Below are positions 1-47,954 of a stretch of 47,954 bases of DNA, piece by piece. Positions within the stretch are counted from its first letter, which is position 1. The number at the start of each line of letters is the position of its first letter. The notes beneath the pieces are model-generated. The model searched no databases and was not told the DNA's origin. It worked only from the letters and a program-made list of their open reading frames with translations. This DNA is from a virus. Its lineage: Duplodnaviria; Heunggongvirae; Uroviricota; Caudoviricetes. The DNA lies in the IMG/VR virus record IMGVR_UViG_3300020200_000004. One strand, 5' to 3'. The position numbers were made by a program, and so were the translations under genes.

Positions 1-264
1 AAGGGATCAATTGGAATGATTATAACAGGCATTTCAAGAGGGGGACTTTTGTTCAAAGACGAAAAGTAATTAAAAAGTTTTCGGCTATGGATATTGAAGC
101 TTTGCCCCCAATGCATGAAGCTAGACTTAATCCAAATTTAATGGTAGAAAGAAGTGAAATTCAAGAACTTGATATGCCGCCTTTTATTAAAGTGACCAAC
201 AAGGCAGATGTAATTTTTAACGGTGCTGAACCTTTGACAGAATTTAATTGTACCAAGGAAAGCC

Positions 265-594
265 ATGAAAACTAAAAAAGCAAAAAAAGCTTTCCTTGAT
301 GGCTATAAAACCTATTCCCCAGAGAAGGAAGGCTATGGTTCTCCCTCTGATTGGGTAGAGAATTTCCGTTCTAGGATGGGTTTAAATGAAGCCAAAGAGG
401 TTCTAGGAGACAATGATCCCTTTAACATCCTTGGACTGCCTAAAGGGGCAAGCTGGGGCGAAATTAAGTCAGCCTACCGTAAACTGGCCATGCAAACTCA
501 TCCTGACCGCAACCCAGGTGATGAGGAAGCTGCTATTAAATTTAAGAAAGTCCAAGCTGCGTATGAAATTCTAGAGGCAAGATATAAGGAGTAA
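265..594 (+). CDS. J-domain (DnaJ-type) co-chaperone
   Basis: C-terminal [33 protein letters not shown] with the HPD motif; preceded by motif B. Confidence 0.9.
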
Positions 595-660
595 ATTAAA
601 GATAAAATTTTCCAGAAAGTTTTCTTTGACAAAAAGTAGCAAATTTGTTATTGAAGTTAT

Positions 661-696
661 GTGCCGTTCTATTCTTACGGGGATAGAAGGATGCAC
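661..696 (+). repeat. 36-nt hairpin repeat A, copy 1
   Basis: GTGCCGTTCTATTCTTACGGGGATAGAAGGATGCAC; a degenerate partial copy follows at about 706-730. Confidence 0.92.
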
Positions 697-725
697 ACCC
701 ATTTAGCATTCTTACGGAGATAAAA

Positions 726-962
726 ATGCATGATGAAGGGCATTGGCGTTTAAAAGTAGATGAAGAGGGGTATTGTCCTTGGCATTTAACAGAAAAAATC
801 GCTGTTAAATGTCATGAAGAAGGTATATCAGCAAAGGATGGATTTGGTCTAATCTATAAAATTGAAGGTGATGATCGTCCCAAATATGTTCGCTGGATAA
901 TATCTGACATACAATATAAAATAAATAGGTTAATCAATGCATTCTCAAAAACTAAAAATTGA
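726..962 (+). CDS. hypothetical protein
   Basis: 78-aa ORF whose ATG lies at the end of the degenerate repeat A copy. Confidence 0.6.
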   Translation: MHDEGHWRLKVDEEGYCPWHLTEKIAVKCHEEGISAKDGFGLIYKIEGDDRPKYVRWIISDIQYKINRLINAFSKTKN

Positions 963-1022
963 AAGTTTACCGATTGAATTGCAAAATATTTATGATAAAT
1001 TGCATTGGTCAAAAGTATTGGA

Positions 1023-1058
1023 GTGCCGTTCTATTCTTACGGGGATAGAAGGATGCAC
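1023..1058 (+). repeat. 36-nt hairpin repeat A, copy 2
   Basis: Identical to copy 1. Confidence 0.92.
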
Positions 1059-1118
1059 AGTGTATTCCTTTAGACTCCGAACCAATACATATTTGTGGCA
1101 TGAATTGATTGTAATTTA

Positions 1119-1406
1119 TCATATAGGTCGATATTGTCTCGTAACAACTTCAATATTCTCTAATTCTTGTGGTAATGGCGGACTGTAAGCTGTATCATTA
1201 GGGTTTTCTTTTTGTATACTTCTGGCATTGTCAATAATTTGTCTTGCTTGAATAGGATTAATGATTTCTTCAGACGGTGCATATGGGTTTTTAGTTGGTC
1301 TGCCTAATTGTAATGCTTGATATGCAGCCAGAAAGCGGCCTCTACGGTATTGATGCCTTGGATTAGGGATAAATTCGTCACCCATGAATTCTCTGAAAGT
1401 AACCAT
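1119..1406 (-). CDS. hypothetical protein with MxxFxEFxxxE-type N-terminus
   Basis: 95-aa ORF (MVTFREFMGDE), inverted relative to its neighbours and bracketed by repeat A copies; ATAGATA upstream. Confidence 0.65.
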   Translation of the reverse strand: MVTFREFMGDEFIPNPRHQYRRGRFLAAYQALQLGRPTKNPYAPSEEIINPIQARQIIDNARSIQKENPNDTAYSPPLPQELENIEVVTRQYRPI

Positions 1407-1423
1407 GATAATTATCTATTCAA

Positions 1424-1460
1424 GTATCGTTCTATTCTTACGGGAATACGAAGGATGTAC
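1424..1460 (+). repeat. hairpin repeat A, copy 3
   Basis: GTATCGTTCTATTCTTACGGGAATACGAAGGATGTAC. Confidence 0.85.
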
Positions 1461-1516
1461 TCTAATCAACTTCAAGCAATTTTAATTGTACCAAGGAGAA
1501 ATAAAAAAGGAAAAAA

Positions 1517-1768
1517 ATGGCTAACCAATTACAAGTCCTGCGAATCCCTGTAAAAGATGCTCTGCCCGATAACGATCAATGGACGAATCGCTTCGAAATT
1601 CGTAGTCAAACCAGTAATCGTGTGTATATTGTGGCTCAGAATAAGGCTAAACGGCACTTCGGGTGCAGTTGCCCGGCGTACCGTGTTCACCGTCATTGCA
1701 AGCATCTGAAGGCTTTGGCCCTTCCTTGCTATGAAAAGCCTCATGAAGTTCAAGTTACTAAGGGGTAA
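1517..1768 (+). CDS. SWIM-type zinc finger protein
   Basis: CSCPAYRVHRHCKH (CxC..CxH) preceded by a Y-x-V beta segment; follows motif B at 1481. Confidence 0.75.
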   Translation: MANQLQVLRIPVKDALPDNDQWTNRFEIRSQTSNRVYIVAQNKAKRHFGCSCPAYRVHRHCKHLKALALPCYEKPHEVQVTKG

Positions 1769-45584: not shown

Positions 45585-45665
45585 AAGTTGATAAGTGGCT
45601 GATAACTCGGTTAATCACGATAGGGTTTAATGGGAAGATTCGGTTAAGCCCACCACTTATCACTT
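45585..45665 (+). ncRNA. Candidate three-way-junction RNA
   Basis: GATAAGTGG/CCACTTATC closing stem with inner GGGTTTAA/TTAAGCCC and TGATAAC/GTTAATCA stems. Confidence 0.45.
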
Positions 45666-45681
45666 AAAACAAAGGAACGTC

Positions 45682-46603
45682 ATGGACCTTGTTGCTCGCA
45701 TTTCTGACCTTTGCAAGCGGGCTGATGAAATTACGGCAGAGCATTGGCAGAAGATGAATTTTACGTTTTCTCCACCCCCTATTCATCGTGCTGAGTTCAG
45801 TGAAAATTGGTGCAAGATTATCACACAAGAGGAACGCAATGGGCAATGGAAAGATAGTTATATCTATGCCTTTGTTGCTCTCAAGGATAATTTCACGAAG
45901 AATTTAGGGCAGATTATGGCGGGTGACATTCATAAGCCTGCAAGTTATAAAGCACCTGCCAAGCATCGTCGAGGAAGTGTGTTTTCATCTGATTTTAACA
46001 ATTGTCTAACTCCGCATGGCATTGTATACATGAAGTAAATTTAACTGTACCAAGGAAAGTCATGACTACTCAACAGATTTTCAAGTTGGCTGAGTTGAAT
46101 CCTTCTTGGCTGATGTGTGACAGGGCTGCGCCGCATTTTTGTGTTGCGGTGCGTGAATTTGATGGACCTTGGGTTACTTTTATCTTGACCAATTGTTTTG
46201 ATGGCATGATTACTGGATATGAAGCCATTAAAGTGCTGTTCAAGGGACATAAGGTTGACATTGTTGTTGAGTTGTTGACGCCAGAGGAAGATGGGTTTGC
46301 ATCCACTTACTTGCGGTTGCCTAGCAAATTTTAATTGTACCAAAACAGTTACCTCTAACACAAAGGGCTAACATGGTTGCTCGTATTCTTGGTTACAAAG
46401 CACGTTTTTGCAATTCTGGTTGTGCTGAATCTTTCAAGGCTGATCGTGAATGTGGTCTTAATTATGGACTACATCGTATTAATGGCGTTTTCTGTTTGCA
46501 TCGTGAAGAATGGTCATTGGCGGCTTGTGCCTGTGCTTACTGTGGTGAAGAAGTGGCTGGCAAGGTTCCCGAACAATTGAAAGAGAAGTTTTCGTTATGT
46601 TAG
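45682..46603 (+). other. Hypothetical ORFs 45682-46038, 46062-46334, 46373-46603
   Basis: Co-oriented; motif B at 46040 and 46330. Confidence 0.65.
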
Positions 46604-46701
46604 TTAAGGGTATTTCGCAAAAGGGCAAGAATCGAATCAGGGAACATGGTAATGATTGGGATATTGTTTCCGAAATGGATGAAGTTTGTTGAAGGAATGA
46701 T

Positions 46702-46784
46702 GGCCGTATGGTGGAATGGTAGACACGCTTCTCTTAAAAGGAAGTTTCCGAAAGGGAGTGCTGGTTCGACTCCAGTTGCGGCTA
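46702..46784 (+). tRNA. tRNA-Leu(UAA)
   Basis: GGCCGTA/TGCGGCT acceptor; AATGGTAGAC D loop; CTTCT-CTTAAAA-GGAAG anticodon arm; long variable arm; GCTGG-TTCGACT-CCAGT T arm. Confidence 0.93.
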
Positions 46785-46810
46785 CTAACTCTTTTTAGAA
46801 AAGGAAACCA

Positions 46811-47029
46811 ATGCTTAATACAGTAAATGTTATCGAATGGTTCAGCGATACGATACAACGCATTACTTCTTTTGCCGATGATAAGAAAGGCAATGAACAA
46901 GCGGAAAAGTTATTCACTGATTTAGCAGAAGAAAATGGATTCAGTATTGATGACGTAGATAAAGGTTTGGAGGATGGACATTTAGAAAGAGACGATTATG
47001 AATTGTTTTTAGTTCATTCTACTAATTAA
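46811..47029 (+). CDS. acidic hypothetical protein
   Basis: AAGGA RBS; followed by a terminator. Confidence 0.65.
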   Translation: MLNTVNVIEWFSDTIQRITSFADDKKGNEQAEKLFTDLAEENGFSIDDVDKGLEDGHLERDDYELFLVHSTN

Positions 47030-47032
47030 ATT

Positions 47033-47070
47033 AAAAAGACAGGCTAACAACCTGTCTTTTTTTTTGTTTT
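47033..47070 (+). terminator. Intrinsic terminator
   Basis: AAAAGACAGG / CCTGTCTTTT stem plus long T-run. Confidence 0.8.
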
Positions 47071-47125
47071 TATTCTGTAGGTATTTTAATTGTACTAAGT
47101 TAAAATATCTAACAGGAGCAAAACA

Positions 47126-47422
47126 ATGATGACTGCAATTCTGGTGCTGGCGTTCATGCAACCACAAGCCGCTGAGATTGATTTGAGGATTGATGCAAGT
47201 AAACATTCAGTCTATGCCGTCATAATGAATGGGAATGAAGTGGGACCGGGTGTTTATCGTAGCACTCCCTTTCGTGGCGAACAGACTGTAAAGATAATTT
47301 TCGTTGTCCAGCAAGGGGAGAATCTTTATATGAGGGAACTGCAATATAAAATCAAAGCTGGCGAACGAAAGACTATCATGCTTGAGATTCCAAGAGTTTA
47401 TCCTACTGTTGTGCAAATTTAA
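47126..47422 (+). CDS. putative secreted small protein
   Basis: Signal-peptide-like N-terminus; stop in motif B. Confidence 0.6.
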   Translation: MMTAILVLAFMQPQAAEIDLRIDASKHSVYAVIMNGNEVGPGVYRSTPFRGEQTVKIIFVVQQGENLYMRELQYKIKAGERKTIMLEIPRVYPTVVQI

Positions 47423-47439
47423 TTGTACCAAAGAGAGTA

Positions 47440-47655
47440 ATGTTCACTAATAGACAAAAAATAGTGTTGCAAGTTGTACTTGGTTATGCCATTAGCAACA
47501 TTGATGACCTTAATGATTGCTTGGCTTTTGATGATGATGATGATGATGATGATGATGATGATAAGGAAGATTCGTTACAACTTGACGAAAAAGAACTGAT
47601 TGACCTTACTCACCTGATTGGATTGCCATGCGAATCAAACGACGCAAAAAGCTGA
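47440..47655 (+). CDS. acidic small protein with poly-Asp tract
   Basis: (GAT)11 at 47530-47562; follows motif B. Confidence 0.6.
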   Translation: MFTNRQKIVLQVVLGYAISNIDDLNDCLAFDDDDDDDDDDDKEDSLQLDEKELIDLTHLIGLPCESNDAKS

Positions 47656-47954
47656 TTAAAATTCTGAACCAAAAAACGGGCAGGATTGTCTTTGTAGGAA
47701 GGTTTGCAAATGCCTGGAAACATGCGTGTAGTTATGTCCAGGTAAGTCAAGACAAATACGTTTTAATGCCCGTTGCTGCTTAATTGTACCAAATAAAGCT
47801 ATGGAACGCAACTAGTAGAGTTTGAACCGATTTTGGTAATCAACAAGGAGATATCATAATGAACCCGTATGTAATTCAAAATCAAAATGGTACTGAGTAT
47901 TGGTCAAATGATGATGGATGGGTTGACATAAAATCGGCCACTCGTTTTAGTGAA

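Follow-up and report, generated by a model that had tools for sequence, protein, structure and literature searches.

A repeated single-block motif with a TGTAC core is a probable phage-specific promoter in an uncultivated huge phage and its relatives

The 47,954-nt stretch of viral DNA analyzed here in its entirety (IMG/VR record IMGVR_UViG_3300020200_000004; "the window") contains a short motif, TAAYTGTACCAA, that recurs in front of many of its small genes. On sequence evidence, this motif is probably a phage-specific promoter consisting of a single conserved block, with transcription starting about 8 nt past the motif, and with roughly half of the genes concerned being expressed from leaderless messages. 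An initial annotation of the window had put forward a single-box promoter read by a phage-encoded RNA polymerase or sigma factor. The promoter part of that proposal is the best supported, by comparative and positional data, whereas six relatives yielded no phage RNA polymerase, and the ribosome-binding site (RBS) placed in the spacer is doubtful. We infer the "early" timing, also proposed there, from gene content and from the absence of the motif in the late modules of relatives.

Exact copies of TAAYTGTACCAA numbered 52, all on the + strand, against an expectation of 0.05 (100 shuffles, maximum 1). Eight copies with one mismatch brought the total to 60, all on +, in agreement with the earlier estimate of about 60 strand-specific copies; allowing two mismatches gave 64 copies on + and 4 on −. 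The conserved block was T-TAAYTGTACCAA-R, 14 bases long: the preceding T was present in 50 of the 52 exact copies, and the base on the 3′ side was G in 36 and A in 16, and never a pyrimidine. Nothing was conserved beyond 5 nt before the block, leaving one conserved block without a −35 element. Eleven exact copies occurred in the first 29.8 kb of the window and 41 in the remainder of the array, where the spacing of one per 438 bp matched the density of about 1 per 400 bp reported initially for 29.8–47.8 kb. When the scan was taken beyond the window, as the annotation had suggested, the array was found to extend past it, with five copies in the 19.6 kb upstream, one farther upstream and one about 0.5 kb downstream. 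Twelve of the 14 copies of a TAAC variant of the motif lay between 33620 and 39697, a 6-kb stretch, which suggests local duplication or gene conversion among adjoining cassettes. No viral contig was found with a 19-mer, and the commonest 14-mer gave only single chance matches; literature searches for the consensus, and for promoter motifs of huge phages in general, turned up no account of either.

243–47793, + strand: whole array, 60 copies (up to one mismatch) of T-TAAYTGTACCAA-R, by pattern scan
11771, 22399, 25924, 32659, 38505, 45449, 45575, 47087 (starts), + strand: one-mismatch copies, by pattern scan
29842–47792, + strand: dense part of the array, with an exact copy every 438 bp (41 in all), nearly each small gene having its own copy

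In 31 copies, the motif was followed after 2–11 nt by the ATG of an open reading frame (ORF) of at least 25 aa, the gap being exactly 8 nt in 22 of these; with the limit extended to 66 nt, 44 copies preceded such an ATG. In 25 copies, a preceding ORF of 30 aa or longer ended at the stop triplet within the motif; of all TAA triplets, only 6% closed such an ORF. The motif translates in three frames as FNCTK, LIVP and *LYQ, and its TTG had been miscalled as the start of six ORFs of at least 40 aa (at 14964, 29845, 34517, 37626, 40098 and 40432), bearing out the contention that the leaders of many called ORFs are simply translated motif.

245–267, + strand: example of the short class; motif 245–256, 8-nt spacer, ATG 265 of a DnaJ-domain gene
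245, 15608, 17344, 19597, 24252, 29842, 30960, 31151, 32018, 32659, 33129, 33620, 34123, 35006, 35424, 35711, 36142, 36762, 37103, 37623, 38272, 38630, 38776, 39203, 40095, 41153, 44644, 44916, 45449, 46042, 47420 (starts), + strand: short class, in which an ORF of 25 aa or longer opens 2–11 nt past the motif
1483–47792, + strand: long-leader class, copies 17–66 nt before an ATG, mostly with a GGAG-type Shine–Dalgarno sequence (SD); starts 1483, 19877, 25924, 28725, 36674, 38548, 40429, 40756, 41380, 43033, 43563, 46332, 47087, 47781
7329–45586, + strand: copies without a nearby ORF of at least 25 aa, several of them followed by a structured RNA or mini-ORF; starts 7329, 14961, 18246, 34514, 38123, 38505, 39482, 39697, 43335, 43503, 44264, 45368, 45575
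1483, 15608, 18246, 19597, 19877, 24252, 25924, 31151, 32018, 32659, 33129, 33620, 34123, 35711, 36142, 38505, 38776, 39203, 40429, 43335, 44264, 45368, 46332, 47420, 47781 (starts), + strand: copies in which a preceding ORF, 30 aa or longer, terminates at the motif's stop triplet

As judged from its genes and those of its relatives, the window is a fragment of a huge phage of the T4 superfamily, uncultivated and known from lake metagenomes; the longest contig recorded for it measures about 112 kb. It encodes Rnl1-type and Rnl2-type RNA ligases, LAGLIDADG endonucleases, an ADP-ribosylglycohydrolase and a DUF932 protein, and several lake-water metagenome assemblies contain its DNA almost unchanged, being 97.8%–100% identical to each other, i.e., nearly clonal. 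The T4-superfamily assignment follows from the T4-type Gp23 capsid protein (E ~1e-88) and terminase encoded in two relatives, and from rIIA and endonuclease VII, which lie upstream of the window in the same phage. A megablast search with 10 kb of the window against phage records gave no match. The window Rnl1 had hundreds of homologues, on contigs of up to 590–685 kb. Among viral contigs, Rnl1 loci were recovered by an alignment-based search, a single-protein query having found none. Apart from the phage's own assemblies, the nearest relatives had Rnl1 proteins only 45%–59% identical to that of the window, and the closest deposited record was LR756511, an uncultured phage of 595 kb. The motif was compared in five relatives (records of 159–595 kb), i.e., LR756511 and those termed L175, L176, L179 and L182/L183.

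All five carried a version of the motif. The TGTAC core was common to the window and the five relatives, and the flanks were lineage specific and co-varied: TAGCTTAGTTGTACcaa in L175 (53 copies in 21 kb), TTAGCTGTAC in L176 (53 copies), GGTTGTACTAA in L179 (46 copies) and CAATTGTACCA in L182/L183 (47 copies), in each case on one strand. Flank variants in the clade included TAAY, TAGY, AAGC and GGT, and CCAA as opposed to CTAA. In LR756511 the version was TAAAGCTGTAC(T/A)AA, with 55 copies on + in the first 19 kb, a block of + genes, and 77 copies on − across the next 280 kb, where the genes run on −; it was essentially missing from the last 295 kb (300–595 kb). The relatives thus had 46–55 copies per ~20 kb, co-oriented with the genes and packed into regions of small genes. 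A 390-kb relative that is 98% complete (G001) had 101 copies on + and 6 on −, with 70 within 280–320 kb; no copies on the gene strand occurred in its capsid and terminase region, and the Gp23 and terminase genes of relatives lay in motif-free regions. The motif-dense 280–320 kb of G001, which is the region sampled by L175, has a GC content of 48%, as against 39% genome-wide. The co-orientation with genes, the restriction to a subset of genes and the co-evolution within lineages together fit a signal read by a factor that the phage specifies. Most likely, on this comparison, the TGTAC core with lineage-specific flanks defines a promoter class common to a clade of T4-superfamily huge phages of 370–600 kb.

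Around Rnl1 in three other loci (L137–L139) there was no dominant motif, and more distant phages had dense motifs of unrelated sequence. In distant huge phages (L190, L191, L193, L198, L140 and L184) these were GACCTAGAC or GACCAAGAC (13–18 copies per locus) and ACGGACACCC or ACACCCGCT (9–11 copies), all strand specific.

The distance from TGTAC to the ATG of the first ORF was bimodal in all six genomes, being either 10–11 nt or a leader of 30–40 nt. The short peak stood at 11 nt in the window (21 cases), 10 nt in L175 (9) and L176 (7), and 10 or 11 nt in LR756511 (16). In the six genomes, the long class had a strong GGAG SD and the short class none; mean SD duplex energies in the window were −2.95 kcal/mol for the short class, −5.44 for the long-leader class and −2.0 for random positions. 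The base at −1 of the ATG was a pyrimidine in 26/27 short-class cases in the window and 41/47 in relatives, as against 3/12 in the long class of the window and ~54% elsewhere (Fisher p = 9e-6). The start codons are real, since the Rnl1 genes of L175 and L176 start exactly 10 nt past TGTAC with an N-terminus that matches the family consensus. In the leadered class of L175 and L176, a conserved t-G was found at that same offset. Among window copies without an ATG 5–10 nt after the motif, 12/21 had a pyrimidine–purine step at motif positions 19/20, compared with a background of 0.235, and of the offsets between 12 and 29 this was the only one enriched.

Such a step, with the pyrimidine at −1, the purine at +1 and a constant spacing from a conserved block, is the picture expected of a promoter with a defined start. 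Transcription would begin at the 12th nucleotide after TGTAC in the window (8 nt past the motif end) and at the 11th in the relatives. In about 30 window genes the ATG would sit exactly at the start site; with the A of the ATG as the +1 purine, the mRNA would be leaderless. The remaining copies would be followed by a tRNA-like gene, a structured RNA or a leader of 17–66 nt that has an ordinary SD. The weak SD, the pyrimidine at −1 and a gap more tightly fixed than an SD would need all fit leaderless mRNAs. Thus, the initial description of an ATG with a purine-rich RBS soon after most copies stands for the ATG (31 copies at 2–11 nt) and fails for the RBS: the purine-rich 8-nt spacer is more likely the stretch between the element and the start.

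As the block also carries the stop triplet used by upstream genes, a stop, a promoter and a start would be fitted into 23 nt. Examples of this arrangement and its variants are as follows.

33129–33151, + strand: complete 23-nt junction of stop, putative promoter and start; TAA closes the first SprT-like gene (32673–33131) and ATG 33149 opens its paralogue
32659–32675, + strand: variant TGATTGTACCAA, stop triplet changed to TGA, still a stop; ends ORF 32191–32661, with the ATG only 2 nt past the motif
11771–11782, + strand: in-gene one-mismatch copy, with TCA replacing the stop, inside the ADP-ribosylglycohydrolase ORF
28683–28736, + strand: doublet; degenerate copy 28683 giving the upstream stop, spacer of ~30 nt, perfect copy 28725
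38505–38559, + strand: second doublet; degenerate copy 38505 giving the stop, spacer of ~30 nt, perfect copy 38548

The copy at 32659 was the only one with a triplet change that kept the stop, and the N-terminus of the gene opened after it matches that of the paralogue starting at 33149. Both copies in which the changed triplet is no stop (11771, TCA; 22399, CAA) sit within genes; that at 11771 is probably non-functional, and that at 22399 may be likewise. The doublets may be footprints of lost cassettes, or a small conserved element; their spacers look alike, as judged by eye only. In all relatives, the conserved stop triplet in the block ends a third to two thirds of the upstream genes. The stop codon within the motif is most simply explained by genome compaction, a role at the RNA level being the alternative.

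Copies adjoining terminators and RNA genes bear on what kind of signal the motif is.

17313–17369, + strand: hairpin and T-run resembling an intrinsic terminator (17313–17343; the hairpin has −12.6 kcal/mol and stops 3 nt short of the motif), motif 17344–17355, ATG 17367
47036–47128, + strand: strong terminator 47036–47075, variant motif 47087–47098, 27-nt leader with AGGAG, ATG 47126
43335–43440, + strand: motif 43335–43346, 22 nt before a tRNA-Lys(UUU)-like gene at 43369–43440 (29.6 bits to the Rfam tRNA model, the gathering score being 29; missed by ARAGORN)
45527–45591, + strand: variant motif 45575–45586, as 3′ arm, pairing with an inverted copy at ~45532 in a 21-bp hairpin (z = −5.2)

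A gene with a terminator upstream requires a new promoter. In the + block of LR756511, 19/55 copies lay just past a strong hairpin and T-run, compared with 7% of random positions; in the window this order occurred in 6/60 copies, against 6% of random positions, with only those at 17344 and 47087 convincing. LR756511 also has back-to-back divergent copies (635 on − and 717 on +) where its gene blocks diverge. Because the motif precedes a tRNA-like gene and structured RNAs, it is not a translation signal. The copy said initially to precede a tRNA-Lys does so only in that the tRNA-Lys(UUU)-like gene at 43369–43440 is a weak Rfam match; the tRNA called by ARAGORN, at 46702–46785, is a tRNA-Leu(UAA) with no motif adjoining. 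Hairpin RNAs after copies, also reported initially, were borne out: four of 11 ORF-less copies tested precede or sit inside a significant fold, with z-scores on the 3′ side of −2.8 (7341–7440), −3.5 (14973–15072) and −5.4 (43441–43502). Within 43369–43502, the tRNA-Lys(UUU)-like gene is followed by a very stable 13-bp hairpin (z = −5.4); past these, a mini-ORF of 13 codons begins at motif 43503 and closes with the TAA of motif 43563. After motif 14961 come an A-run and a strong hairpin (14973–15011), which on the minus strand read as a hairpin and U-run; judged from sequence, this is a candidate terminator of leftward transcription beside an inverted two-gene block (14319–14930).

Several observations weigh against the promoter reading. 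A mere 2–3 of the 60 window copies come after a terminator, so that read-through could serve most copies. Several ATGs at a gap of 8 nt begin mini-ORFs of only 2–21 codons. Two stretches of this DNA, of 9 kb and 1.5 kb, matched no RNA run. Within the ~78 kb that were readable for this phage, no sigma or RNA polymerase gene was found, and in LR756511 a 333-aa sigma-like gene is itself preceded by a motif copy; it may therefore be a product of the class rather than its reader. Leaderless translation at this scale, in the host of this phage, is something that we infer. An equal spacing rule would result from an endonuclease that cuts at a set distance from the motif, and the different, stop-containing motif of L140, which sits upstream of terminator-like hairpins, is better suited to a gene-end or RNA-level signal. 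In L140, a 685-kb phage, that motif holds the TGA stop of the upstream gene, and after it come a hairpin, then a second box, TCACACAACCC, and then an SD; the element may be unrelated to the TGTAC motif.

The last two of these points lead to an unlikely, though not negligible, alternative, in which polycistronic transcripts are cut or bound at the motif by a phage-encoded sequence-specific RNA-binding protein or endonuclease, giving monocistronic units or translation control. Parallels would be the RNase III sites of T7 and the targets of RegA and RegB in T4. The motif is strand specific and would be transcribed, most window copies lack an upstream terminator, the upstream stop codon lies inside the motif in all relatives, and RNA-repair genes are plentiful in the phage (Rnl1, Rnl2, Thg1, a nucleotidyltransferase), all of which, with the L140 element, would suit this explanation. 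Against it, the terminator-then-motif order is fivefold enriched in LR756511 and is seen at 17344 and 47087, and copies stand back to back at the divergent gene-block boundary of LR756511. The pyrimidine (−1) and purine (+1) at a fixed offset are a signature of polymerase initiation and correspond to no known nuclease rule; we know of no linear 12- to 14-nt specificity among such phage nucleases. Finally, distances to the ATG ranging from 2 to >60 nt do not suit an operator that occludes the RBS.

That the motif is instead part of an ordinary host sigma-70 promoter, with TTGTAC as the −35 element and a −10 box 16–18 nt downstream, is scarcely credible. TTGTAC does resemble TTGACA and the −35 region of T4 early promoters. 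However, TAnnnT at 16–18 nt was no commoner than at random positions in the six genomes, and LR756511 and L176 carry CTGTAC. In addition, because the ATG stands 8 nt past the motif, the −10 box and the start would fall inside the gene. Readings of the motif as a sigma-54 promoter, a MotA box or an extended −10 were rejected because the register or critical bases do not fit.

For a promoter of the phage's own, the reader would most likely be the core RNA polymerase of the host, guided by a sigma factor or adaptor that the phage encodes. Looking elsewhere in the genome for polymerase or sigma genes, as proposed initially, revealed neither in the ~78 kb of this phage, including the ~30 kb upstream of the window on a 68-kb contig; relatives had sigma genes and no detectable phage RNA polymerase. 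The T7-type polymerase family (PF00940) was not found in LR756511 and five relatives of 159–459 kb, three of them at least 90% complete, although the control genomes also lacked the family; the beta-subunit domain (PF00562) was not found in LR756511, although very divergent polymerases could escape such searches. Large relatives each had about three ORFs with Sigma70_r2. One of the sigma genes of LR756511 is ECF-like, with regions 2 and 4, and two have region 2 with no detectable region 4; a conserved group of 275- to 297-aa sigma proteins has both regions, and a region-2-only protein the size of gp55 (170–190 aa) is present in relatives. A tblastn search with the three LR756511 sigma proteins against the DNA of this phage gave no significant match, and scanning metagenomes with a sigma alignment gave generic bacterial sigma factors only, none from the source lake or from a motif-bearing contig.

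The closest known counterparts are the promoters read by the gp36 sigma factor of phiEco32, which have a single element, tAATGTAtA, with the start 6–8 bp downstream (PMC8948821). As in those promoters, the motif is one highly conserved block with no −35, the start would lie ~8 nt past the block, and the sequence is partly similar (AAT-GTA); as in phiEco32, sigma-family genes are known, here from relatives, some without a detectable region 4. The motif differs in its sequence, TAAYTGTACCAA, and in its 60 to >100 copies per genome, as against 6 in phiEco32. Unlike phiEco32's middle and late promoters, it serves small accessory genes, many of them with predicted leaderless mRNAs. T4 late promoters, read by gp55 with gp33 and gp45, also have a single −10-type box read by a minimal sigma factor, in the same phage superfamily. 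Their sequence, TATAAATA, is different, however, and the TGTAC class is kept out of structural gene modules. The T4 late box was not enriched in G001 and LR756511, being below expectation, so that the late promoters of these two must be of another kind. Promoters of phage RNA polymerases (the 23-nt T7 type, and those of the virion polymerases acting early in phiKZ and AR9) resemble the motif in being a single contiguous block of ~14–30 nt near the start that is present in many copies, has a purine at +1 and differs in sequence between lineages, co-varying from relative to relative. The failure to detect PF00940 in six relatives, and PF00562 in LR756511, sets the motif apart from them.

Promoter-early stem-loop (PeSL) cassettes are known in T4-type phages (PMC2839356, PMC4122927). 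Like PeSLs, the motif is a repeated regulatory element that stands before nearly all small ORFs in hyperplastic regions of T4-superfamily genomes. The composite of terminator and promoter recurs in the + block of LR756511 (35% of copies), and relatives show mosaicism at the level of cassettes. Unlike it, PeSL promoters are early promoters of the host sigma-70 type with −35 and −10 elements; moreover, the stem-loop is almost always missing in the window, and the element is squeezed into 14 nt, with a stop codon and a start codon joined to it.

The initial annotation had also suggested that the motif is a recombination core. Since the element recurs before every small gene, it is probably a substrate for homologous recombination; a repeated element of 14–40 nt would allow single-gene cassettes to be gained, lost and moved. 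Only 17 of 53 inter-motif cassettes were shared between L175 and L176, though their Rnl1 proteins are 74% identical, and the shared cassettes were interleaved with unique ones and reordered downstream of Rnl1. The sole structural variant among the assemblies was a 46-bp tandem duplication abutting motif 44916: one assembly (L129) has two extra copies of the 46-bp unit directly upstream of the motif (window 44826–44916), and the unit and the motif both begin TAATT. Self-BLAST of the window revealed few repeats; homology between 34472–34529 and 46290–46347 stops 4 nt past the motif.

It is nevertheless very improbable that the motif is primarily a recombination core of integron-like or PeSL-like kind, at which single-gene cassettes are inserted, excised and swapped, with the link to expression being secondary. 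The mosaicism and reordering between L175 and L176, the clustering of the TAAC variant, the duplication at 44916, the homology that ends 4 nt past the motif and the precedent of T4 PeSLs (PMC2839356, PMC4122927) all speak for it. However, gene-level indels in these regions are trivially bounded by the motif, so that mosaicism does not discriminate. The DNA that was read showed neither a recombinase nor an integrase, and the motif lacks inverted repeats and any structure like that of attC. A recombination core would leave unexplained the fixed distance to the ATG and the composition at −1/+1, as well as a spacing conserved across phages with different flanks and the exclusion from late modules. 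Recombination is, on our analysis, likely to be a by-product of a repeated promoter, as with T4 PeSLs, rather than the primary function.

More tentatively, and with somewhat less confidence than would favor it outright, one can envisage a clade-wide regulon of 100 or more genes per genome transcribed from TGTAC-core promoters, with stop, promoter and start in ~23 nt and many messages leaderless. The reader would be an injected or very early sigma-like protein or an unrecognized polymerase, and the element would also drive cassette turnover. The kinds of element involved, i.e., phage-private promoters, PeSL cassettes and leaderless starts, are already known; notable here are the copy number, the fact that a whole clade of giant phages has kept the motif, and the joining of stop, putative promoter and start within 23 nt. 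Huge phages are known almost solely from metagenomes, and a promoter class recognizable from sequence would inform their transcription programs. The motif corrects dozens of start-codon calls, and would define a temporal class of genes (small accessory genes as opposed to structural modules) without culture. The promoter reading predicts widespread leaderless translation and supplies a concrete DNA target for testing the orphan sigma factors of these phages, and a fixed TGTAC core with lineage-specific flanks would be a natural data set on the co-evolution of promoter and reader. The compact element could become an orthogonal promoter part, if its reader is found, and as a repeated element it offers a mechanism for rapid turnover of single-gene cassettes in huge-phage genomes.

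Some further features of this phage were noted. About 18–20 kb upstream of the window start, at 4674–9880 of a contig of the same phage (L172; JGI contig Ga0194131_10000472), lies a gene for a 1006-aa protein with no Pfam match, the nearest Atlas look-alikes of which are of Cas12 type (C2c1 RuvC-like, TnpB-like; score 0.96). Next to the gene, on its downstream side, is a CRISPR array in which a 37-nt repeat occurs 26 times, at a period of ~73, and gene and array constitute a predicted phage-borne CRISPR-Cas12-like system. An additional tRNA gene lies upstream of the window at L172:11408–11481; its D-arm region resembles the motif (TTTAATTGTGCAAA), probably by chance. The stretch at 39.4–41.4 kb of the window is poor in ORFs and has several motif copies with long untranslated stretches. 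At ~40 kb of the window (40000–46000), the GC skew changes from about −0.09 to +0.41, with genes remaining on +.

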